A stretch of DNA of 38,335 nt from positions 1-38,335 of the IMG/VR virus record IMGVR_UViG_3300032218_001136; one strand, 5' to 3'. This document shows positions 7,075 to 21,859 of this stretch, in pieces (within the stretch, counting starts at the first letter, position 1; each line of letters starts with the position of its first letter). The stretch is from a virus. Its lineage: Duplodnaviria > Caudoviricetes. Position numbers and translations under genes: made by a program. The notes under the pieces are model-generated. The model searched no databases, had not been told where the DNA came from, and saw nothing but the letters and a program-made list of their open reading frames with translations.

Positions 7075-7261
7075 GTTCCCATCAGGAAACTGCGTCCACC
7101 CTTGCAAGCACCAGGGTATATGCGACCATTGTGGAACTATCTCCAATGCTGTTGCTGTATGGACAGACTTCGAGATAGAAGGGTGCAACTGCCTGTGCCA
7201 TCAAGCCAGAAAACTATTTGTAACCAACATAACTAAAAAGAAAAAGGGGAGTAAGAAGTGA
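7061..7261 (+). CDS. Cys-rich hypothetical protein
   Basis: CVHPCKH...CDHC...CNCLCH, basic C-terminus; GTGA overlap with whiB. Confidence 0.6.
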   Translation: MMTTEFPSGNCVHPCKHQGICDHCGTISNAVAVWTDFEIEGCNCLCHQARKLFVTNITKKKKGSKK

Positions 7262-7518
7262 CGATTACCAAAACCGAATGGTACGAAGAGGCCAACTGTA
7301 AAGGAATGAACGGTGACATATTCTTCCCAGAAGTACCGATTGGTATTTCGCATAAGGGTTTATTTGATGAGGCTAAAAAAGTCTGCTCGACCTGTCCAGT
7401 AAAGAAACGCTGTCTTGATTTTGCAATGGCAATGGAAGTAAACGACATTAGAAGGTTCGGTATTTGGGGTGGCCTAACCCCTCGTGAAAGAGACAGTTTG
7501 TACAAGAAAAAAAAGTAG
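7258..7518 (+). CDS. whiB: WhiB-family Fe-S transcription factor
   Basis: W..EANC...IFFP...AKKVCSTCPVKKRCL...GIWGGLTPRER: four Cys plus the G(I/V)WGG turn. Confidence 0.95.
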   Translation: MTITKTEWYEEANCKGMNGDIFFPEVPIGISHKGLFDEAKKVCSTCPVKKRCLDFAMAMEVNDIRRFGIWGGLTPRERDSLYKKKK

Positions 7519-9842: not shown

Positions 9843-10141
9843 TATTTCCCCTTTACTATTTCGGTCACTGCTTCGATTGCTTCTTCTGCTGTTTCGTAGG
9901 CTTGAAAGTCGCCTACCGTATCTATCTGCCCATCACGGTAGGCGATTCGGATAGTGAACTTCCGTGCATAGTTGCCATAGGTATCCTCTTCGCTTGAAAT
10001 AAAGTACTTGCCACCGTAAATAGTTGGCAGAACGTGAGAGGCGAAAAACCTCATAGTCTCGGGTGCAAACCAAGTGTGACCAATAGCCGCATTTAGTTTC
10101 TTGACCTGTTCAATGGTTCGGAAATAGTAGTCCGTTTTCAT
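9842..10141 (-). CDS. Hypothetical phage protein (WFAPETMRFF..YFISSE pattern)
   Basis: 99-aa ORF with RBS AAGGGG and a CA-rich leader. Confidence 0.75.
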   Translation of the reverse strand: MKTDYYFRTIEQVKKLNAAIGHTWFAPETMRFFASHVLPTIYGGKYFISSEEDTYGNYARKFTIRIAYRDGQIDTVGDFQAYETAEEAIEAVTEIVKGK

Positions 10142-10176
10142 AGTTTCCCCTTGTTGGTGTAGTTGGTTTGTGTGTC

Positions 10177-10229
10177 GGCTTTCGCCTTGTCCCTAGTTAC
10201 GATTGAACGTCACGCCCGAAGCGCTAGGG
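10177..10229 (-). other. Structured intergenic element (three-way junction with T-loop-like arm plus GAAA hairpin)
   Basis: CCCTAG/CTAGGG closing stem enclosing CGC-TTCGG-GCG and ACG-TTCAAT-CGT, followed by GGC-GAAA-GCC. Confidence 0.55.
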
Positions 10230-10236
10230 GTACGGA

Positions 10237-10419
10237 TTAGAGTCCGCAAGCCTTTAGAAACTTTTCTTCGTCAAAACGGTCATTTGTCTCACAGCATCGG
10301 CTAGTAACTTGAAGAATTAGCCTTTCAATCTGAATAGTTTCGGCTTTCCCTTTGTTCTTTGCGTGTTCGTAACTCTCTCTCAAAGTCTCTGCGATTAGTT
10401 GGTAGTCTTTGCGTGTCAT
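10237..10419 (-). CDS. Hypothetical phage protein (MTRKDY..IA...RFD..KF..AC), 60 aa
   Basis: ATG 10419 preceded by RBS AAAGGGG; first gene of the minus-strand cluster. Confidence 0.75.
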   Translation of the reverse strand: MTRKDYQLIAETLRESYEHAKNKGKAETIQIERLILQVTSRCCETNDRFDEEKFLKACGL

Positions 10420-10479
10420 GTAATCCCCTTTGTTGTGTTGTTTTCTTCCTGTACTAATCATAAGGCATAGGTAAGACAC

Positions 10480-11221
10480 TTGATAGCACCAAACAATCTC
10501 TTCTAGTACTACTAAGGCCAGTAAACCCTTGCAGGCAAAGGGCTAGAAATTGTAACCAAATTGTCACAAATAAAATGCCACGAAGAGCCACAGCAAACCG
10601 CACTAGTTAGGTATTCCTAACAACCAGAGCCAAAGCAAGCCGAAGAACAGCAAGTGCTAACAAAAGCAAGCATGGCACACACAACAGCAAGCACCTAGGC
10701 GAGACTCACACAAAGGCACTTTCTCCCGACTGTCGCCATTCGTACAGCACCGAGGGCAAGGGAGGGTAGGCCGAGTAGGTCAGTGGTTTGCATGAAAATT
10801 GAGTACCAGTAGGGGAGTTGGTATTGGCCGAGCACGTTCTCCATGTAGTAGGCCAGTGTGCGGATACCACCCGCAAGGCTGAGGGTTATCAGACAGAGAG
10901 ACTGGGGTATCTGCCGAGGCAGGTAGGGGTACCTCTAGGTGATATCACCGCTCGATAGTTTCACTCTTTTTGCTGTTCGGGTATCGTGTGAGTTTAGCGT
11001 CATACACTCAGGTTTTACCCATGCTCTAGAGGCGGGGTGGCTGCTTGCGTAACACAGATGTTTGACCTCTCGTTTTGAGAGCATGGTTTTATGTTCAACC
11101 GCAGAGTCTGAGGTGTGTGAGTAGTCAAAGTGTTTCGTTCGAGGGCAAGCCGCTTTAGCGGTGCGCCAGCCCAACGAGGCGTTAGCCGAGGCGGGAGTTG
11201 TTACCAACAGAGGAATAAAGC
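10480..11221. other. Non-coding control region (candidate origin and/or packaging site)
   Basis: No credible ORF; short direct repeats, several palindromes and an A/C-rich to G-rich compositional switch. Confidence 0.5.
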
Positions 11222-11436
11222 ATCCCCCCACTGTTTACCACCAATCGTGGAAGGTCGCCGTAGCCAATTTCTTTTAGCCGACACCTTGATTTGATGAGTT
11301 GACGTTCATCACGCTGCTTACCTATTTCAAAGAATAGATACCTACCCAGGTTCCCCTGTTTACGTCCCGCACCTTGCAACAGGTGTACGACCTTGCTTGC
11401 ATCGCTATTTACCAACAGTGACGACTTGTGAAGTTG
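11222..11436 (-). ncRNA. Candidate large structured ncRNA with multiple pseudoknots
   Basis: Dedicated promoter, two long-range stems, six internal hairpins, G-U pairs favouring the minus strand, and three loop-to-linker complementarities (details in findings). Confidence 0.7.
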
Positions 11437-11442
11437 TCTGTG

Positions 11443-11471
11443 ACTTTAGCAGGTAACATACATGATTGCAA
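11443..11471 (-). promoter_or_regulatory. SigA-type promoter driving the candidate ncRNA
   Basis: Minus strand TTGCAA, 17 nt spacer, TAAAGT with extended TGn. Confidence 0.7.
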
Positions 11472-11474
11472 CTA

Positions 11475-11483
11475 TGGTATATT
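11475..11483 (+). promoter_or_regulatory. Extended -10 promoter, probably leaderless
   Basis: TG-G-TATATT, then 6 nt, then ATG 11490; no SD sequence. Confidence 0.55.
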
Positions 11484-11489
11484 CATTTC

Positions 11490-12080
11490 ATGGACTGGAA
11501 CAATAATCTTTCTGATTGGAAAAATGAAGTAACCAAAATTGCTGGTACGGCTGGAAAAGTTGCAAAAACTGTAAACCATATTGCTGAAGAAGCAGTAGGT
11601 GTTGGTGATGCAAAGCGTTTTTTGAAGCACCCAACACTAGGTGGCGGTTTGAAAGTTGGTTTAGATATTGCCGCAGCAGCATTTGCCCCAGAAGCCATTG
11701 TCGCTCGTGGTGCAATAGAAGCAGAAAATGCTGGTCGTGCCGCTCAAGCCGTTTACAATGCTGGTCGTGTTGCAGAAGTTGAAGCAAAAATGGCACAACC
11801 GCTTACTCGAACAATGACTTTTCTTGGTCGAGAAGGTGCAATCCATGCTGGTCCAACTTCCACACGTGTAGTTGCAGATGCAGCATCAACTGGAGTATCC
11901 GCAGCAAGGCGTTTGGCTGGTTTAGAAAATGCTTCCGCAACTGGTGCTCGACAAGCATTTACCAATGCGGCAGCACCAGTCATTAGCAAAGCAGAACATT
12001 TGTCAAGAATTGTTAGTGGACTTGCAGGAGCACACGCTGGTTACAACGTTGGAGCAGCACCAAAGGTAAAAAAGAAGTAA
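11490..12080 (+). CDS. Ala/Gly-rich hypothetical protein upstream of the terminase
   Basis: Long ORF with phage-typical codon usage; ATG 11490 preferred over TTG 11466, which falls in the divergent promoter. Confidence 0.7.
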   Translation: MDWNNNLSDWKNEVTKIAGTAGKVAKTVNHIAEEAVGVGDAKRFLKHPTLGGGLKVGLDIAAAAFAPEAIVARGAIEAENAGRAAQAVYNAGRVAEVEAKMAQPLTRTMTFLGREGAIHAGPTSTRVVADAASTGVSAARRLAGLENASATGARQAFTNAAAPVISKAEHLSRIVSGLAGAHAGYNVGAAPKVKKK

Positions 12081-12093
12081 CATTCCCCCCCTT

Positions 12094-14073
12094 ATGGGAA
12101 CCAAACGTAAAGTAGCACCTGAAGATAAAGCAAAGTTTTTTGCTGCAGTAGCAGCAGGCTCATCTATCAGCCAGGCTTCTCGCATTGCTGGAGTACACGT
12201 CAATACTGGTTCCAAATGGCTTGCTAAATCAAAAGAAGCCAAAGCAAAACTAGACCAAGCAGTACTTGAATCTTCACGTGCCAATGCCCGTTCTGGTGGC
12301 AGACAACAAGCCAAATACGAACAAGACCTAGATGATGCAGTAAATCTACCCCCAGCGATTCCATATGGTCGGCTATGCCCAGAAGCAGAACGTGGTCTCA
12401 AAGACTTTGATTTCTTTCGCCGTTACTACTTGGGCCGTGTTCCGTCACCTTGGCAGGTAGAGGCAGCAGTAACCCTTGTAGAACTATTAGAACACCCCGA
12501 CAAAGAGTTTGTGGTACTCAATGTTCCACCAGGTGCTGGTAAATCCACCCTGTTCCACGATGTTGCTGTATGGGCAATCGTGCGCAACCGTTCAATCCGT
12601 GTGATGATTGGCTCAATTTCGCAGGCAATGGCAAAGCAGTACTCTCGCCGTATCCGTGAAACCCTAGAACGACCTCAACCAATCCAACCAGACCCAGAAG
12701 TAGTTAAAAAAGGGTTAGCGGTCAATGCCGAGGGATGTCTCTCAATCGACTATGGTCGTTTCAAACCATCAGATAAAGGCGCACTATGGCGGGCTGAAGA
12801 GTTTGTAGTAGAGCAACTAGACGGAAATGGCCTGGATAACAAAGAACCAACCGTTCGAGCATACGGAATTGACTCTGAATACATCGGACACCGTGCTGAC
12901 CTATGCCTATTTGATGACGTTGCCTCTGTGGATAACTGTCGTGAAGGTGCAACCCGTGACAAACTACTAGAAAGATGGGACCAAGTGGCCGAAGCACGTG
13001 TTGACCCATCTGGATTACTGGCAGTTGTCGGACAAAGACTGGGTTCTGGCGACCTATACGCCCATTGCTTAGCCAAAATCACCTATGAACTAGACGATGA
13101 AGAATATGACGGAGAAGATATGCTTACTCCAGAACAAGTTCAAAACCGTGAACCAATGAAGTCGTCTAAGTACAAGCACATTGTGTACAAAGCGTATTAC
13201 GCAGAACTAGATGATGGCCCTAAATCACGGCGCTTTGATGCTGAACCATACCCCAAAGGACCGTTACTAGACCCAAAGAGACTTTCATGGAAGGACTTGT
13301 CCTATATCCGTTACTCAAATCCCAATACGTTCAAAGTGGTGTATCAACAAGAGGATTCCCTGTCCGATACCAACCTCATAAACCGAACATGGATAACAGG
13401 CGGTCTAGGAGACGATGGCGTTTTGTATCAGGGTTGCATCGATAACGACAGATTGCCAGGCAAAGTCCCAGAAGGACTAAAACCACCAGTGATATCCCTC
13501 ATATCTGTCGACCCATCCCCATCACAATTCTGGGGTATCCAATGGTGGTTATACCAACCTGAGACAAACCTACGTTATTTGATTGACGTTGAACGAATCA
13601 AACTAACAGCCGAAGAATTACTTGGATATAACACAACAACAGGAGAGTACTCAGGAATCCTAGAAGAATGGACCAACCGTGCCTTTGCATATGGATACCC
13701 AGTTTCCCATATCGTGGTAGAAGTAAACGCAGCCCAGCGTTTCCTATTGGCTCACGACTTTGTACGTAAATGGCAAACCCGTCAGATGGTAAACGTTATC
13801 CCTCACACCACTCATAGAAACAAGTTCGATGAGAAACTAGGAATTGAAGCATTACTCCCACCGCTATATCGTTCTGGCGCTGTACGACTTCCATCCATGC
13901 GTGGCAACTGGAAAACCCTGGCCCTTGTCGATGAACTCACCAAATGGACTCCAGACAAAAAGAGTGGGACAGACCTTGTAATGGCTAACTGGTTTGCTGA
14001 ACTTCATTTCCCTAACGTGGGTGGAATAAAAATGCCGCCTCGACAATGGCGACCTTCGTGGATGCTAACGTAG
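12094..14073 (+). CDS. terL: Terminase large subunit with N-terminal HTH extension
   Basis: Walker A VPPGAGKST, Walker B LCLFDD, nuclease ISVDPS and TDLVMA; adjacent to the portal gene. Confidence 0.9.
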   Translation: MGTKRKVAPEDKAKFFAAVAAGSSISQASRIAGVHVNTGSKWLAKSKEAKAKLDQAVLESSRANARSGGRQQAKYEQDLDDAVNLPPAIPYGRLCPEAERGLKDFDFFRRYYLGRVPSPWQVEAAVTLVELLEHPDKEFVVLNVPPGAGKSTLFHDVAVWAIVRNRSIRVMIGSISQAMAKQYSRRIRETLERPQPIQPDPEVVKKGLAVNAEGCLSIDYGRFKPSDKGALWRAEEFVVEQLDGNGLDNKEPTVRAYGIDSEYIGHRADLCLFDDVASVDNCREGATRDKLLERWDQVAEARVDPSGLLAVVGQRLGSGDLYAHCLAKITYELDDEEYDGEDMLTPEQVQNREPMKSSKYKHIVYKAYYAELDDGPKSRRFDAEPYPKGPLLDPKRLSWKDLSYIRYSNPNTFKVVYQQEDSLSDTNLINRTWITGGLGDDGVLYQGCIDNDRLPGKVPEGLKPPVISLISVDPSPSQFWGIQWWLYQPETNLRYLIDVERIKLTAEELLGYNTTTGEYSGILEEWTNRAFAYGYPVSHIVVEVNAAQRFLLAHDFVRKWQTRQMVNVIPHTTHRNKFDEKLGIEALLPPLYRSGAVRLPSMRGNWKTLALVDELTKWTPDKKSGTDLVMANWFAELHFPNVGGIKMPPRQWRPSWMLT

Positions 14074-15938: not shown

Positions 15939-16352
15939 ATGGCAACACAATATCCACAACGTAGTGACCTTCGGAATCCTATGAAGAAACTTGCAGCAAC
16001 AGCAGTACCAGGTCAGACTTATGGCGCAGCAGGCGCACAACTTGCTGCACAAAAAGCAGTACCTATGGCAGCCCCAAACGCACCACAAGCACCACAGCCA
16101 AATCCAAATGCTGTTCCACCTGGTGGTCATGGGCCATTTGATAGAGGAACAGAACGACCACTAGAACCAGTCACCGCAGGTAACCCCCTTGGTGCTGGCC
16201 CAGGTCCAGAAGTAATTTCACAACGCTACCCAGCAGGGTTTGAACCAGGGGGGAAAATCCACATGGCAGACCAACTTCGATATCTATATTCACGTTATCC
16301 AAATCGTGCTTTGCTTGACCTGATTTACCAAGTAGAAAACACTGCTTCGTAA
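15939..16352 (+). CDS. Pro/Gly-rich virion-associated hypothetical protein
   Basis: 137-aa ORF abutting the portal; GQTYG and TERPLEPVTAG.PLGAGPG motifs. Confidence 0.75.
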   Translation: MATQYPQRSDLRNPMKKLAATAVPGQTYGAAGAQLAAQKAVPMAAPNAPQAPQPNPNAVPPGGHGPFDRGTERPLEPVTAGNPLGAGPGPEVISQRYPAGFEPGGKIHMADQLRYLYSRYPNRALLDLIYQVENTAS

Positions 16353-19300
16353 TGCGCTCAGACCAGATTGAAGAACTGGCAAAAATTGACGAAGTAACAA
16401 AACAACGTCAACTTGATAACCAGCAAACGCTTACATGGGAACACGCAGACCGTGCTGGCCGCGCAGCACATGGTGGTTGGTACACAAACCCAAACATTAC
16501 AGCAGCAGCAGGATTATCACCAGTTCCAGTTGATGCACAAGCAATTCATACATCTGTTCAACAGCAAATGGCTAATGCTCATGTTTTATTAGAAGACCCG
16601 TCACGACACATTGCTGGTGCAGATTCAACTGTAACAAAAACATATCAACCAACGTTGACGGATTTGTTAGCAATGGACCCAAATATATTTAATGCACCTC
16701 GTCATAGCCCAACTCCATCATGGTGGGAACAAGTAGACCCTGGCGCTCAATGGCGCAATGTTGAGGTGGATAAAAGCACTGTCAAAACTGCCAATGATTT
16801 CATTTCATTAGACCAAGCACAAGCGTTCAAAGTAATTCATCAACTTGGATATCAACAAATAAAAGATTTGCCAGGCTGGACAAAAACTATTTTTGACCCA
16901 AAAGTAAAATCACGTCAAATTACTTATGACAAATATGGAAACCCAAACCTTACAACCATAGACAACGGAACGTTAGATATCGCTAAAGCCAAGTTTCCAG
17001 AACTCTGGCAGGCAGTTGAACAAATGGACCCAACCATTATGGACAACCATTTTCAACCAGAAAAAAAGCGTGAAGGCTGGGGAAAAGTTACTGGTTATCT
17101 AAAAGATGTAGAACATACGGCTGAAGTTGGTGCACAATTTTGGAATGACCAAGCCGTGAGTTTATATAATGCAGTAAAAGGTTTACCACCTGCAGCAGTT
17201 GAATCGATGGGTGTTGATTCAGGACATTTCAATTTTCTTGCAACTGGAATACGTGGTTTAGCAAAGACTGCAACAACAATTCTTACAGGTGCAGCCCAGG
17301 CAACCAAGGGTGAGGCTGAGTATTTGCTCACTCATATAGGCGGGCCTGATAATAAAAGTATTGGTCAAGATTTTGGTGATTGGAAAAATCTTGTTATCAA
17401 TGGAAACGTACTTACACAAGCAGCAGAAAATATTGTAAAAACTGGAAATCCACAACTTGGTGCTGGATATTTTCCAGCAGGAAAGTCTTTAGCAGATGCA
17501 ATAAGCGCACATGATAAAGGACTTCCAGAAGTTGGTGGTCACGTATGGACACTGGGACGTGCATCAACTGAACCATTGGTACAAATGGGTGTATTGAATC
17601 GTGATGGATATGCTGCTCATGTTGTATCTGGTCTTATTGATGCAACATTTACTGTAGCAACTGACCCTTCAATGTATTTTGACCCACTCAAACTGGGAAT
17701 GGAAGCACTTTCTATTGACCGTGTTGCAGCAACTCACGTACTTGAAGGCCGTGCTGCACAAAAAGTATTGAAATACTGGGAAGCAGCACGTGAATCGGCT
17801 GGTCTTGGAAAAATTATTAACGTTTCAGATGAATTAGCGCCTGCATATTACGACCTTGGCGGTGCTGGAGAAGATTTTATTCATGGTGCTTGGCAACGTG
17901 TTGATTCAATTACCCCAGAGTTTGATAAAGCAGCAGAAGAACTTGCTGCAAAAACTGTAGATGGTATCGACCTCGCTGGAATGGATTCACCACCTGTACC
18001 AAAGTTTGAGGATTCGAGTATCGAAGGCGTAAAGATGGCACACGGTCTCATTCCGCAAGCAGATGGTGGATATGCAATGTCACCACTTGATATTGATTTG
18101 TTGCAAGCAACCAAGTCTGGTCGCCGAACTCTACAAAAACTTACTGAATATGATTCTGTTGGTCAACTTTACGAGAAAAATCTGGGAAGAATACCTACTG
18201 GACTTGCCCATGAAATCCAGACTTATGTTGAGGGTGAACGTGTATTAGGAAAAGCACCAGATTTGGATAAGGTATTTGAAATCTTGAAAAAGGGCGCATT
18301 GTCTGGTGACCCTCTATACAACTTGGCTGAACGCCCTGGAATGATACGTCAACTTGTGCATGATACTGGAACTCAGGTTTCGTATTGGACATCAAATAAG
18401 ACTCGTCAACTACAAGCAGCACCACGTGAGTTTTGGTTTGACTGGCATGACCCAGAGAGTTCATTGAAAAATATGAAACTCATTATGACCAACATGAAAG
18501 TTCCTGCAGCAAAACGTGAAGAAATGCTGACTGCAGCAATTAAAACATTGGTTGAAAAAGGACCAAAGGGTAAGTTTGATTTGGCCACAAAGTTCCAACA
18601 AGAAATTTTGCGGCCAGCACTAGAGGCTGCTGGTATGGATGATAATGCTATTAAAGAATGGACACGTTGGTCCAAATACGATAACTCAATCAAACAGACT
18701 TTGATGGACCGATTTGGTAATTCTTATCCAATGGACCATCTAACAAAAGGAACAGATGTTGTTCGTGAAGTAGACATGATGAACAACGGTTTCAAAATGA
18801 TAGACCCAGAATCATATAACCGTCTCATGCGTGAAACCGCAGCATGGACCAAAATGATAAAGCCACTACGTGAATCTGAAACTGTTGGTGGAATAGTAAA
18901 TGATTTCCTAGACAAGTACAACGTTTCTGCTCAATGGATTTCTAATGCTCAAAATAAAGTTCTAAAGCCTTTGTCTATGGGTGCACCATTCCCTATTGCG
19001 CTTGGTGTTCGAATGGCTATCACTGATGCTTTGATGACAATATCTGCTGGAGAAACTCCACTTGAGTTTATGCAAGTTGTTCATGCTTTTGGTCATGGTG
19101 GTTGGGATACTCACGGTGAAGTAATTAAGGGTGCACGTGAAATTACAAAAATTGGTATTCAAATGGAAGAACGAGCAAAACTCGGTCAATATCTAATTGA
19201 TGCCCAACTTGCTGGAGATACTACAAAAGAAGTAAAACTATTATCACGCATTGCTAAACACGAAAAAGAATATGGAACTGTTGATGAAATGCGGAAGATG

Positions 19301-21859
19301 ATTGACACATATAACGAACGTGCTGACATGATTCTTCCTGGAATGAATCGTAATGCTGCAAGTCGCCTTCGCGGCCTTGGCCAAGAAGAAATGAAAAACC
19401 CTCAAATGATTAGATACCGTGCGGCTAACGGTGCACAAACTGCAGACCGTTTGGAAAATCCTGAACAATGGGTAATTGGTACAGCACGTGACCTTGCACG
19501 TCAATCAGCATCACCAACCTACCGTGAGGTAGCAAAAGAGATTATTACCAATGGACCAGATAAAGCATTGGAAAATCTAACCAAACGTTTCCATAGTGGA
19601 GACCTTCGAGATATGTTTGTCAACAATCACCTTCGAGGTGTAGCAAATCAAGACCCAACATATGTTTGGGACTCAGTTACTGGGATAAACAAATGGTTAA
19701 AAGACATCATTATCCCAGACATTATGACTCGCACTAACGGAGATACAAATCTTCTTAATGTAGTTGCTTCTGGAATGATTGACGGAACTCGCGCAGAAAT
19801 CAAAGTTGCCGAACGACTTTATGAAGCGCACCCATATTTGAAAAAGTATGTACGTGAAACACTGCTGGAAGACCCAACCGCTCCAAATAAGGTGCTATTC
19901 CACCCTGACTTTGTTACTAAAAAAACAATGGAAAGCAGTGGAAATATGTTAATGACAGGAATGTCAAAAACATTGAATGTTGTATCTAGCAAACTCATGC
20001 GTGAACCATTGGGTCAATATTGGAAATGGACAGCAGTTAGCGAACTTATTCCAGCAATGAAACCATCAGAAGCAAAAGCAATGTTGGCAACAGTTGAAAA
20101 ACTTTCAGATTTTCCTAAATCACTTATTGAAACCATACGTGAATTAGTTCCAGAAGCACGTGGCACTGCATCACGCAAAGAAATTGAACTACTTGGAACG
20201 CTTGCATCGCAACGAAAAATATCAGACTTATTTTATGAGGCTGGACAAAAGTCATTTTTTGGTCGTAGGCACAATTTAATGTACGCATTTATGGACCCGT
20301 ATATCCAACATTGGATGAAATGGGGTCGTGCTATTGCAATGAAACCAACAATTCTTGAACAGGGACGTGTGCTTCAGCAGGGTATGCAAAATATTGAAGT
20401 TCCATCTTGGGCTGGTGGTCAACCATCAAAGGGATTTGAATTTAATGACCCAAGTGTTGGTCGTGTATTTGGATTTCCTATAAGTAATTTGCCAACAGAA
20501 CAACTTGGTTTGCATACAAGAGAATTAATTCCAACAAAAAATCTTTCACTTGCCCCAATGGCGGCACCAGGAGCATTTGGTATTGGTGCATATGGATTAG
20601 ATATGGCATTGAGTCAATTTGGAAAAAATAACCCATATACAAATTCATTACGACATATCTTTTTTCCACGAGGGACAACAACTATCCCTCAATCTTTACC
20701 AGATTATTTTATTCCAGCATGGGGTCAAGCAGTTTTAACTGGTGCTGCTGGTGTTGCAGTAAAGGCTGGAATGAATCCAGATATATTTGACAAAATGACA
20801 AACCTTTTTAGTGGTCAGCAAAATGGTCGCAATCAGGCTCAGATTGCACAAAAGGTAATGACAGCCAATGCGGCCAACTGGGGAGAACTTGATACACCAG
20901 AAAAACGTTCTGCATTTATCCAGGATTCACAATCAAAAGCAGTATGGGTTGGTTTGCTTCAAGGCGTATTTAAGTGGCTAGTTCCTGGTTCCCCGTATAC
21001 GCAGTATTACACCAAAATTGGCGACACTATTGTAAGTCAGGGTGAGGCAATTAGTGACCTTCGAGCAACTACAAATAATGCTTTATCTAATGGAAAAACA
21101 TATGATGAAGGTGTACAAGAATGGTTGCAAAAAGTTGGTCCAGATGGTTGGATTTATCTTACTGGTGCATCAAAAACAACTCCTGGTATGCAGCCAACTA
21201 AAGAATGGTATTCATGGTGGCAGCAAAATAGTCATGTCATGGACAAGTATCCAAATGCTGGTGGTTTTTTAGGACCACAATTTGGTGTATTTTCACCTGA
21301 CGCGAACCGTGAACTTATTGCTTCACAAGACCGAAAATATAAAACACTTAATGAACGTTTGTGGGATTCACAGGCTTCACTTGCTAAATCTATTATCAAT
21401 AATGCTATTGAAAATTATGTAAAACAGGGTGAAACTATTGGATTGACCCGTGACAAAGTATTTAACAACGACAGTTTTATCCAAAATATGAAAATTATTA
21501 AAGACCAAGTTCGTACAAAGTATCCAGCATATGACCCTAAATTATATTCTGCAGAAATGGAAGCACTGAGAACTAAACAATTCGATGAAATTGCCCTTAT
21601 GGCAAAAGACAAAAATGTACTTAATGCAGACTCTGGTAAAGGTCTTGCTACCTATTGGGATTTTAGAACAAATATGGTTAGCGCATGGAAATCTGCATAT
21701 CCAAGTCAAACATATGATACTTGGAAAACTTCTACTGCATCAGCAAACTTCCGTCAAGCGCTATATGACAAGGGTATTGAACAAGTAAAACTGCACCCAG
21801 AGTTCAGTTCTATTTGGGAAAAAGTACTTTCACGAGAGTTTGACCCGCCAATACCATGA
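16352..21859 (+). CDS. Large putative internal virion / DNA-ejection protein, 1835 aa
   Basis: Very long ORF in the structural operon with no tape-measure context (no tail tube or chaperone genes nearby). Function inferred from size and context. Confidence 0.6.
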   Translation: MRSDQIEELAKIDEVTKQRQLDNQQTLTWEHADRAGRAAHGGWYTNPNITAAAGLSPVPVDAQAIHTSVQQQMANAHVLLEDPSRHIAGADSTVTKTYQPTLTDLLAMDPNIFNAPRHSPTPSWWEQVDPGAQWRNVEVDKSTVKTANDFISLDQAQAFKVIHQLGYQQIKDLPGWTKTIFDPKVKSRQITYDKYGNPNLTTIDNGTLDIAKAKFPELWQAVEQMDPTIMDNHFQPEKKREGWGKVTGYLKDVEHTAEVGAQFWNDQAVSLYNAVKGLPPAAVESMGVDSGHFNFLATGIRGLAKTATTILTGAAQATKGEAEYLLTHIGGPDNKSIGQDFGDWKNLVINGNVLTQAAENIVKTGNPQLGAGYFPAGKSLADAISAHDKGLPEVGGHVWTLGRASTEPLVQMGVLNRDGYAAHVVSGLIDATFTVATDPSMYFDPLKLGMEALSIDRVAATHVLEGRAAQKVLKYWEAARESAGLGKIINVSDELAPAYYDLGGAGEDFIHGAWQRVDSITPEFDKAAEELAAKTVDGIDLAGMDSPPVPKFEDSSIEGVKMAHGLIPQADGGYAMSPLDIDLLQATKSGRRTLQKLTEYDSVGQLYEKNLGRIPTGLAHEIQTYVEGERVLGKAPDLDKVFEILKKGALSGDPLYNLAERPGMIRQLVHDTGTQVSYWTSNKTRQLQAAPREFWFDWHDPESSLKNMKLIMTNMKVPAAKREEMLTAAIKTLVEKGPKGKFDLATKFQQEILRPALEAAGMDDNAIKEWTRWSKYDNSIKQTLMDRFGNSYPMDHLTKGTDVVREVDMMNNGFKMIDPESYNRLMRETAAWTKMIKPLRESETVGGIVNDFLDKYNVSAQWISNAQNKVLKPLSMGAPFPIALGVRMAITDALMTISAGETPLEFMQVVHAFGHGGWDTHGEVIKGAREITKIGIQMEERAKLGQYLIDAQLAGDTTKEVKLLSRIAKHEKEYGTVDEMRKMIDTYNERADMILPGMNRNAASRLRGLGQEEMKNPQMIRYRAANGAQTADRLENPEQWVIGTARDLARQSASPTYREVAKEIITNGPDKALENLTKRFHSGDLRDMFVNNHLRGVANQDPTYVWDSVTGINKWLKDIIIPDIMTRTNGDTNLLNVVASGMIDGTRAEIKVAERLYEAHPYLKKYVRETLLEDPTAPNKVLFHPDFVTKKTMESSGNMLMTGMSKTLNVVSSKLMREPLGQYWKWTAVSELIPAMKPSEAKAMLATVEKLSDFPKSLIETIRELVPEARGTASRKEIELLGTLASQRKISDLFYEAGQKSFFGRRHNLMYAFMDPYIQHWMKWGRAIAMKPTILEQGRVLQQGMQNIEVPSWAGGQPSKGFEFNDPSVGRVFGFPISNLPTEQLGLHTRELIPTKNLSLAPMAAPGAFGIGAYGLDMALSQFGKNNPYTNSLRHIFFPRGTTTIPQSLPDYFIPAWGQAVLTGAAGVAVKAGMNPDIFDKMTNLFSGQQNGRNQAQIAQKVMTANAANWGELDTPEKRSAFIQDSQSKAVWVGLLQGVFKWLVPGSPYTQYYTKIGDTIVSQGEAISDLRATTNNALSNGKTYDEGVQEWLQKVGPDGWIYLTGASKTTPGMQPTKEWYSWWQQNSHVMDKYPNAGGFLGPQFGVFSPDANRELIASQDRKYKTLNERLWDSQASLAKSIINNAIENYVKQGETIGLTRDKVFNNDSFIQNMKIIKDQVRTKYPAYDPKLYSAEMEALRTKQFDEIALMAKDKNVLNADSGKGLATYWDFRTNMVSAWKSAYPSQTYDTWKTSTASANFRQALYDKGIEQVKLHPEFSSIWEKVLSREFDPPIP

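Follow-up and report, generated by a model that had tools for sequence, protein, structure and literature searches.

A widespread, uncatalogued two-pseudoknot RNA of freshwater phages and its possible role as a replication-origin transcript

The minus strand of a freshwater bacterial virus genome (IMGVR_UViG_3300032218_001136, a complete virus record of 38,335 nt, analysed over its whole length and termed the window below) carries an element of ~215 nt, with a core at 11223-11395 and a predicted sigma-70-type promoter ahead of it, which is a genuine, uncatalogued family of non-coding RNA whose function we infer. The family is widespread among phages and described by a covariation-backed model with two pseudoknots. 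The RNA may well act in cis as the transcript of an R-loop-type replication origin, a reading that we place a little short of an even chance. An earlier note on this DNA had proposed a compact, promoter-preceded, pseudoknotted minus-strand RNA, a proposal that the analysis supports; the promoter, the coordinates and every complementarity listed in that note are present in the sequence.

The plus strand of the window encodes the terminase large subunit (TerL), portal, major head and tail genes, and the genome contains a recombination module composed of a RecE-like exonuclease, an annealing protein, RusA and SSB. An actinobacterial host is proposed because the phage encodes WhiB, described as a marker of such hosts in part of PMC10202952. 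The two genes used below as landmarks are:

7258..7518, plus strand: WhiB (PF02467, E 6e-18), actinobacterial-host marker.
12094..14073, plus strand: terminase large subunit (phrog_38), with an N-terminal HTH-like region.

The early block consists of small minus-strand genes ending at 10141 (or 10479), and the interval 10480-11465, in which no ORF has a family match, holds the RNA at its late-gene side. No significant polymerase, primase, helicase or initiator match was obtained for the window ORFs that were scanned. A second conserved structured stretch, found in about 12 of 70 relatives, lies on the minus strand at 10136-10260, just upstream of the first early gene; it adopts a three-way fold at -31 kcal/mol, has no Rfam match and is likely a 5' leader or small RNA. 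On the other side, positions 11466-12080 and the equivalent slot in relatives are hypervariable, with 0-4 unrelated genes between the RNA promoter and terL whose products have basic N-termini. In one subgroup (L075, L130, L138, L180, L574, L636) a hairpin with GTTGG...CCAAC arms is located in this slot, ~60-130 nt upstream of the RNA promoter, and may be a late-strand leader. Elsewhere, 16352-21859 encodes an 1835-aa protein without PHROG or Pfam match, for which the closest Atlas clusters with a name hold large polyvalent or MuF-associated proteins; Atlas searches with this and a 144-aa protein assigned no family.

The 5' region of the transcription unit comprises two features:

11443..11471, minus strand: sequence-predicted sigma-70-type promoter, with -35 TTGCAA at 11466-11471 and extended -10 TG-C-TAAAGT at 11443-11451.
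11402..11437, minus strand: predicted start ACAAC (11433-11437), a putative start site, and an optional leader hairpin.

Of 189 subtype-A members, 141 have an extended -10 no more than 95 nt upstream, where shuffles expect 15.7, and 89 have a TTG -35 along with it; a simple promoter scan of the window did not list the 11443-11471 site. RCAAC was found upstream of the RNA in 99 of 195 members. The leader hairpin (CUGUU 11414-11418 with AAUAG 11405-11409, closed by a GGUA loop) forms in 79 of 191 homologues, the leader being missing from many family members. For the 215-nt strand the folding energy is -65.8 kcal/mol (z = -2.86), a stability equalled by 1 of 200 shuffles. Conservation forms an island at 11250-11395, matched by about 50-52 of 70 terL-anchored loci, with cover of 0-1 loci at 11100-11200 and 11450-12100. 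The element is regarded as non-coding because the frame at 11182..11415 (77 codons), named in the earlier note as the place where coding might show, is open in only 19 of 204 homologues, and because element lengths are spread over all three phases (60/64/80 modulo 3 among the 204). A role of the G-run as a Shine-Dalgarno sequence for a short ORF was ruled out, since a start codon after it is not conserved.

Covariation was assessed in an alignment of 26 non-redundant short subtype-A sequences, and pairing counts throughout refer to sequences, not to independent evolutionary events. In the corrected model 97.6% of 1036 cells are paired, against 31-51% in slid controls, and two-sided (compensatory) changes occur in 21 of the 42 pairs. 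Its elements, from 5' to 3' along the RNA, are:

11364..11395, minus strand: P1 5' strand CAAG (11392-11395), P2 (11389-11391 with 11364-11366) and a GUA/CGG internal loop, from covariation.
Within 11364..11395, minus strand: P3 (11382-11385 with 11370-11373) and its pseudoknot loop UUGC (11376-11379), from covariation.
11347..11358, minus strand: P4 hairpin with a G-GNRA-C loop, 100% paired.
11319..11340, minus strand: P5 hairpin, length-variable, 98% paired, 8 of 8 pairs compensatory.
11312..11318, minus strand: pseudoknot strand, in which GCAG (11314-11317) pairs with the P3 loop (PK1) and CG (11312-11313) with CG (11303-11304) of the P6 loop (PK2).
11293..11310, minus strand: P6 hairpin with an AACG loop, 91% paired, 4 of 5 pairs compensatory.
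11253..11285, minus strand: P7, the most conserved domain (GGU/ACC, GUCG/CGGC, GCU/GGC), with a bulged G11256, 97% paired.
11238..11250, minus strand: P8 hairpin, variable, 80% paired, 4 of 4 pairs compensatory.
11223..11235, minus strand: 3' tail, with C11233 (lone-pair partner), the P1 3' strand (11229-11232) and the G-run (11224-11229).

P2 is paired in 146 of 147 cells and P3 in 196 of 196, with compensatory changes present; in the 26 homologues the P3 stem CACC/GGUG is 100% paired and three of its four pairs are compensatory. PK1 (UUGC/GCAG) is likewise paired in all 196 cells of 49 sequences, five of which replace U-A by C-G, and in siphoviruses it takes the forms UGC/GCA (13) and UGA/UCA (6). 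PK2 is CG/CG in 217 of 226 members, AG/CU in 2 and other combinations in 7; the 20 siphovirus members divide into 16 CG/CG versus 4 AG/CU. A lone pair between the bulged G11256 and C11233, which precedes the YGUG sequence, is present in 47 of 49 sequences (G-C 31, C-G 9, U-A 6) and in 253 of 274 overall, and is broken in 16 of 20 siphovirus members. Support for P1 and P7 is weaker because both are nearly invariant in the 26-sequence alignment: the P7 GUCG/CGGC stem does not vary in it, the variation seen in P1 and P7 is G-C/G-U, and GGC/GCC replaces GGU/ACC in L835 and L837. The G-GNRA-C loop occurs in 263 of 274 members, a GNRA-like motif having been part of the member filter. The 54 invariant positions of the alignment suggest a binding or catalytic core, beyond what an R-loop model by itself would need.

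The P5 of other members carries ~60-nt multi-stem inserts. By inspection, subtype B retains P1-P4, P7, P8 and the tail, and its pseudoknot partner sits within an expanded P5. In three subtype-B members (L097, L213, L081) a hairpin inserted in P5 displays an AGUA/GAA motif, which we take to be E-loop-like. The G-run is invariant in alignments A1 and A3, the run having been part of the search pattern, and measures 4-6 G in siphovirus members recovered by the model. No partner in cis was found for 11224-11229; the 5' leader and the strand preceding P4 were both considered and rejected, since on inspection neither pairing is conserved across homologues.

The hairpins first listed for the P3-P8 regions are thus borne out by covariation in homologues, whereas the long-range pairings proposed with them gave way. 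The outer stem CACUGUU/AACAGUG forms all seven pairs in only 1 of 191 homologues (median 2), its 5' arm folding locally, and the closing helix of the corrected model amounts to only 3-4 irregular pairs. The long-range stem AAGGUC/GACCUU is paired in 56% of cells, with all pairs holding in 4 of 49 sequences. Among the three pseudoknots once suggested, ACGUC/GACGU is paired in 70% of cells and complete in 5 of 48, CUUUGA/UCAAGG in 59% and complete in 2 of 26, and UUGCA with upstream UGCAA is complete in 5 of 191; the UUGC loop finds its partner instead in GCAG at 11314-11317.

Three metatranscriptome runs from two studies, which had been selected by matching the RNA stretch, each contained one short contig of a relative. 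A 229-nt contig maps to L001 1168-1393 without a loose end: it opens on the final base of the -10 box and stops 12 nt beyond the G-run of that relative, and nothing else is covered in 8 kb. The expected start falls a few bases inside the 5' end of this contig, and the contigs are strandless. The missing terL cover proves little, because the runs were chosen by the RNA stretch. A run that is probably DNA (X16) also yielded a 189-nt piece on the same island. These contigs give a weak indication that the RNA is transcribed and ends shortly after the G-run.

Members were gathered by pattern scans and terL-anchored searches, with a member filter that included a GNRA-like motif, and at least 274 distinct homologues were present among the loci fetched; pattern scans put the totals at ~460-480 stretches for IMG/VR and near 470 for the metagenome set. 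Of the 150 loci of the window's family, 53 extend 4 kb or more upstream and 52 of these have the RNA, as do 82 of the 85 that extend 2 kb; it is present in a single copy per genome and always opposite to terL, the P7 core lying 190-3585 nt upstream of that gene (116 loci). In a second locus set the family model recovered the RNA in 68 of 80, and one fragment (L069, 14% complete) has lost its 3' two-thirds. The description of the RNA as divergent from the terminase fits this family, and not the other carriers, where it is placed differently. In 14-16-kb HK97-like siphoviruses it is found directly upstream of an HNH-terL gene in 20 of 22 loci, the other two being cut by contig ends. In WhiB phages with another terminase (L529-L531) it forms an antisense island, and it also occurs in myovirus-like phages (L528 and L562) and in a 61%-GC lineage (L553 and L555). 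The terL/portal/capsid sets beside the RNA are of three or more unrelated kinds, and neighbouring genes run with it in some cases and against it in others. A search for cellular copies with the family model gave nothing in sets of 5, 151 and 151 actinobacterial genomes, and 0 of 120 matches of a GTDB pattern scan scored as a member; this is a weak test, since the scan was loose and covered 9 of 64 parts and the genome searches included no positive control. Two further observations concern these loci. Related contigs L538 and L550 hold a different GC-rich, apparently non-coding structured stretch that matches the loose pattern and not the fold. In L763, L773, L816 and relatives among the 14-16-kb siphoviruses, an apparent fixed genome end falls ~300 nt into the HNH-terL frame; being inside the fused frame, it would therefore leave the gene whole only after circularisation.

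A transcript-dependent origin was inferred because recognisable primase and helicase genes are absent, because the RNA occupies an initiator slot in one lineage, because the layout recalls that of lactococcal phage c2, and because strand skew switches at a C-run downstream. DnaG primase (phrog_47) and DnaB helicase (phrog_19) have no match in any of 33 carrier genomes, of which 31 are 90% complete or more, and 34 carriers show no HTH_36 initiator over the cut-off and no Prim-Pol. Planktophila phage E7 and Streptomyces phage WRightOn, in which a related terminase is present and the RNA absent, both match DnaG and DnaB, the contrast comprising these two controls and a few related carrier lineages. 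Many small phages lack primase and helicase genes regardless of this RNA. Near-universal retention in 52 of 53 window-family and 20 of 22 siphovirus loci was also counted for an origin, and the association with unrelated packaging systems in both orientations suits a portable module served by host enzymes.

The DNA on the early side of the RNA contributes two features:

10904..10970, minus strand: conserved downstream DNA element (AAAAGAGTGA, C-run, GGCAGA-CCCC type motif), a candidate origin or genome-end site.
10549..10595, minus strand: terminator-like hairpin (10576-10595), then a second extended -10-like site (10549-10558) before the early genes, a promoter called from sequence only.

The C-run motif lies 117-422 nt past the RNA in 55 of 77 members. 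Keto skew climbs across the downstream element in 56 of 58 members, the strand switching from A/C-rich to G/T-rich downstream in the same proportion; genome GC skew and four-fold-site skew were uninformative. GCTNCGC mini-hairpins are enriched downstream (28 of 115, compared with 6.9 shuffled) and are not universal. The minus strand at 10580-10720 is very T/G-rich, with a T-A skew of 0.76 in 10621-10720, a 17-nt direct repeat whose copies lie 42 nt apart, and the terminator-like hairpin at its end.

In the myovirus-like carriers L528 and L562 the RNA sits directly upstream of a 123-137-aa protein that matches only the C-terminal part of replication-initiation family phrog_16167; the two initiators are 43% identical. 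A weak helicase-loader match follows the initiator in L562, and the next gene of L528 is its homologue; both labels are partial or weak PHROG matches, with no Pfam or NCBIfam support. The RNA is present in 2 of 80 loci with this truncated initiator (one phage), so the initiator-slot argument holds only by analogy, 78 of the 80 being without it. A C- or G-run motif is found in 56 of 69 related loci with 500 nt upstream of the initiator and in 0 of 77 control windows. A promoter-like site, defined by a permissive pattern with no control, usually precedes the motif by 110-145 nt; the two RNA carriers are without this motif in the slot. Between 80 and 380 nt ahead of the truncated initiator, several distinct promoter-proximal elements of 110-145 nt were observed in myovirus-like phages (L683, L687, L713, L729, L756 and relatives). 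They end at GGTTCCCCC-N-ACCCCC or the inverted G-run form, have no Rfam match and are possibly further origin RNAs.

The origin reading starts from the promoter sequence, the covariation-backed fold, the single copy and the G-run at the 3' edge. The RNA would be transcribed and terminate soon after the G-run, as the contigs hint; the folded 5' domain could then hold the G-rich 3' tail on the C-rich template as an R-loop; and host enzymes might start DNA synthesis from the RNA 3' end or from the bubble, this start replacing a phage primase, helicase or origin-binding protein. Against this reading, a fork primed by the RNA in the window would oppose most genes, the extended -10 is found in only 8 of 20 siphovirus members, and one carrier lineage retains a truncated initiator and a loader-like gene. 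A bolder form, in which the RNA is a portable RNA-only replication initiator exchanged by at least five unrelated freshwater phage lineages, replaces primase, helicase and origin-binding proteins, and may descend from the raiA core, strikes us as conceivable, though on balance improbable.

A free RNA acting in trans, raiA-like, abundant and globular, which would bind a host protein or ligand and shift host physiology or defence, possibly as a distant, rearranged raiA relative, would account for the element's own promoter and for the three lineages without a co-oriented downstream gene. Its size and high invariance resemble those of raiA, its P3 loop and partner recall raiA PK1, YGUGGGG is shared, and the element is scattered over unrelated phages, several of them WhiB-positive; raiA itself acts in trans, as parts of PMC12968392 describe. 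We nevertheless consider this doubtful: there is no model or profile match either way, the long P1 and raiA connectivity are missing, and near-universal single-copy retention in 14-16-kb genomes would be odd for an accessory gene. A trans-acting RNA also leaves the missing primase and helicase and the slot before the initiator unexplained, and about 300 actinobacterial genomes, searched with no positive control, gave no cellular copy.

The element could instead serve packaging, either because transcription through the RNA toward the genome end recruits terminase to the cut site, in a T7 phiOR-like geometry, or because the RNA itself does so as a pRNA-like cofactor. In siphoviruses 23 of 80 contigs start no more than 1 nt from a CCCC-GACCCC site that follows the RNA at a distance of 372-425 nt, and the window's family has a comparable C-run element downstream of its RNA. 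The P7 core is 190-3585 nt from terL in 116 loci, and no separate terS was recognised. The apparent fixed siphovirus genome end downstream of the RNA fits packaging as well as it fits an origin. A packaging role is nonetheless unlikely, since the RNA is found with three or more unrelated terL/portal/capsid sets and lies in the replication module of myovirus-like phages, contig ends in the window's family show no pile-up and no sharp terminus, and E7 packages with a related terL in the absence of the RNA.

That the RNA is a ribozyme or ligand-binding RNA of unknown chemistry, its position being incidental, would suit the dense invariant core, the two pseudoknots, the co-varying lone pair and the constant GNRA loop. 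It appears decidedly unlikely, as known ribozyme and riboswitch families gave no match, no signs of cleavage were seen, and P7 and the lone pair drift in siphoviruses. Finally, a cis-regulatory leader acting on downstream genes as a put-like antiterminator or attenuator is very improbable. In its favour, the RNA is close to its promoter, it points the same way as terL in siphoviruses and as the initiator in myovirus-like phages, and a terminator-like hairpin (10576-10595) precedes the early genes. Against it, the RNA of other lineages forms an antisense island flanked by genes of the opposite strand, the window's next co-oriented genes lie 0.7-1.1 kb further on and have a promoter-like site of their own, and a start codon after the G-run is not conserved.

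Large structured RNAs of unknown job are rare and prized, and this phage family is abundant. If the RNA is an origin, it would account for the replication of very small and abundant lake phages that have no recognisable replication proteins, and would extend the c2/ColE1 principle to a conserved RNA fold moving between unrelated viruses; a compact replicon for actinobacteria could follow. If it acts in trans, it would be a new phage RNA effector carrying a raiA-like module, and if an RNA-only initiator descends from the raiA core, it would offer the first mechanistic handle on raiA-like folds. At 170-230 nt and with natural variants, the RNA is suited to probing and cryo-EM.

Comparison with catalogued RNAs placed the family in none of them. 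Rfam 15 gave no gathering-score match in the window or in 12 related loci (6 member loci, 6 others) and nothing meaningful even at E <= 10; together with ARAGORN, which found no tRNA or tmRNA in the window, this agrees with the initial judgement that the RNA is not a tRNA, tmRNA, RNase P or small ribozyme. Short stretches bear a passing likeness to pieces of 23S rRNA domain V, RNase P, SRP, a group II intron and a c-di-GMP riboswitch, likenesses for which the Rfam scan was empty and which we do not claim. A blastn search of 10141-11500 against 50,697 GenBank phages gave no match, and a literature search, with subscription papers outside its range, found no account of this RNA. A core 10-mer is absent from six supplementary files of a phage structured-RNA catalogue (PMC10690425), whose files 1, 2 and 4, outside that search, may hold the RNA as an anonymous candidate.

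ROOL and GOLLD are much larger than the ~200-nt phage RNA. They are often found beside tRNAs, whereas the window has no tRNA and no match to either. Both are structured RNAs occurring in prophages, according to part of PMC5737381, which also describes ARRPOF as lying in a gene-free region that suffices for replication without rep. ARRPOF and GEBRO are structured elements linked to plasmid replication, yet they are plasmid-borne, belong to other phyla and gave no Rfam match at E <= 10. A phi29-type packaging RNA would be expected to bind proheads and to keep to one type of motor; the phage RNA occurs with unrelated terminases.

The resemblance to raiA noted at the outset survives in part. Membership was rejected: the raiA covariance model (RF03072), which scores 154 bits on real raiA, has no match at E <= 10 in the genome, family model R1 has none at E <= 1 on 9 raiA loci, nhmmer is empty in both directions, the long P1 is absent and the connectivity differs. 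The hairpin-loop pseudoknot and the 3' YGUGGGG strand do parallel PK1 and P4 of the raiA core as described in parts of PMC12968392 and PMC10861870. Both RNAs are stand-alone, ~200 nt long and contain two pseudoknots; in both, a GCRRC-type strand further downstream pairs with the loop at the tip of a two-part stem, over 4-5 bp in the phage RNA compared with 6 bp in raiA, the L041 loop letters being identical to those of the raiA loop. YGUGGGG terminates a helix in each, and some subtype-B members display an E-loop-like hairpin. In contrast, the phage RNA lacks the long three-part P1 (P1a-c), its GUGG strand pairs 5' of the PK1 hairpin, which is placed inside and not before the GUGG helix, its PK2 uses the P6 loop so that the P4/PK2 connectivity of the triangular core is not matched, and its P7 domain has no raiA counterpart. 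raiA works in trans (PMC12968392), and the phage RNA is found in phage and metagenome contigs only. Remote kinship with raiA is possible, if rather unlikely.

In lactococcal phage c2 (Ceduovirus) the origin depends on a non-coding RNA, the PE1 transcript, for which both length and sequence or structure are important; plasmids can replicate from this origin with no phage proteins, as stated in part of PMC7150918. As in c2 (NC_001706 annotation), the window's lineage, though not every carrier, has divergent early and late blocks separated by a gene-free interval, a first promoter giving a non-coding transcript and a second, same-strand promoter serving the early genes, in a genome with an Erf-like annealing protein and SSB. 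Neither sequence nor structure matches: in a comparison that covered the c2 type, the highest score was 11 bits, for ~30 nt located away from the origin. Origin types of c2 differ across groups, whereas the phage RNA is one conserved fold over unrelated phages, and origin function is demonstrated for c2 and a sequence-based proposal for the phage RNA.

ColE1 RNA II is a promoter-driven, folded primer RNA of ~550 nt with a G-run, which needs no plasmid-encoded initiator and acts through a persistent RNA-DNA hybrid, RNase H cleavage and Pol I extension. The phage RNA shares the promoter, the folding and the G-run, its 3' side being known here from the G-run and one RNA contig end, and differs in its ~200 nt and two pseudoknots. 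No antisense partner like RNA I was seen and no Rfam RNAI match obtained; searches with four families recognised no element-encoded primase or initiator in 33-34 carriers, while the myovirus-like carriers keep a partial initiator. By analogy, the phage RNA likely works in the manner of a c2/ColE1-type origin transcript, being a member of neither group.
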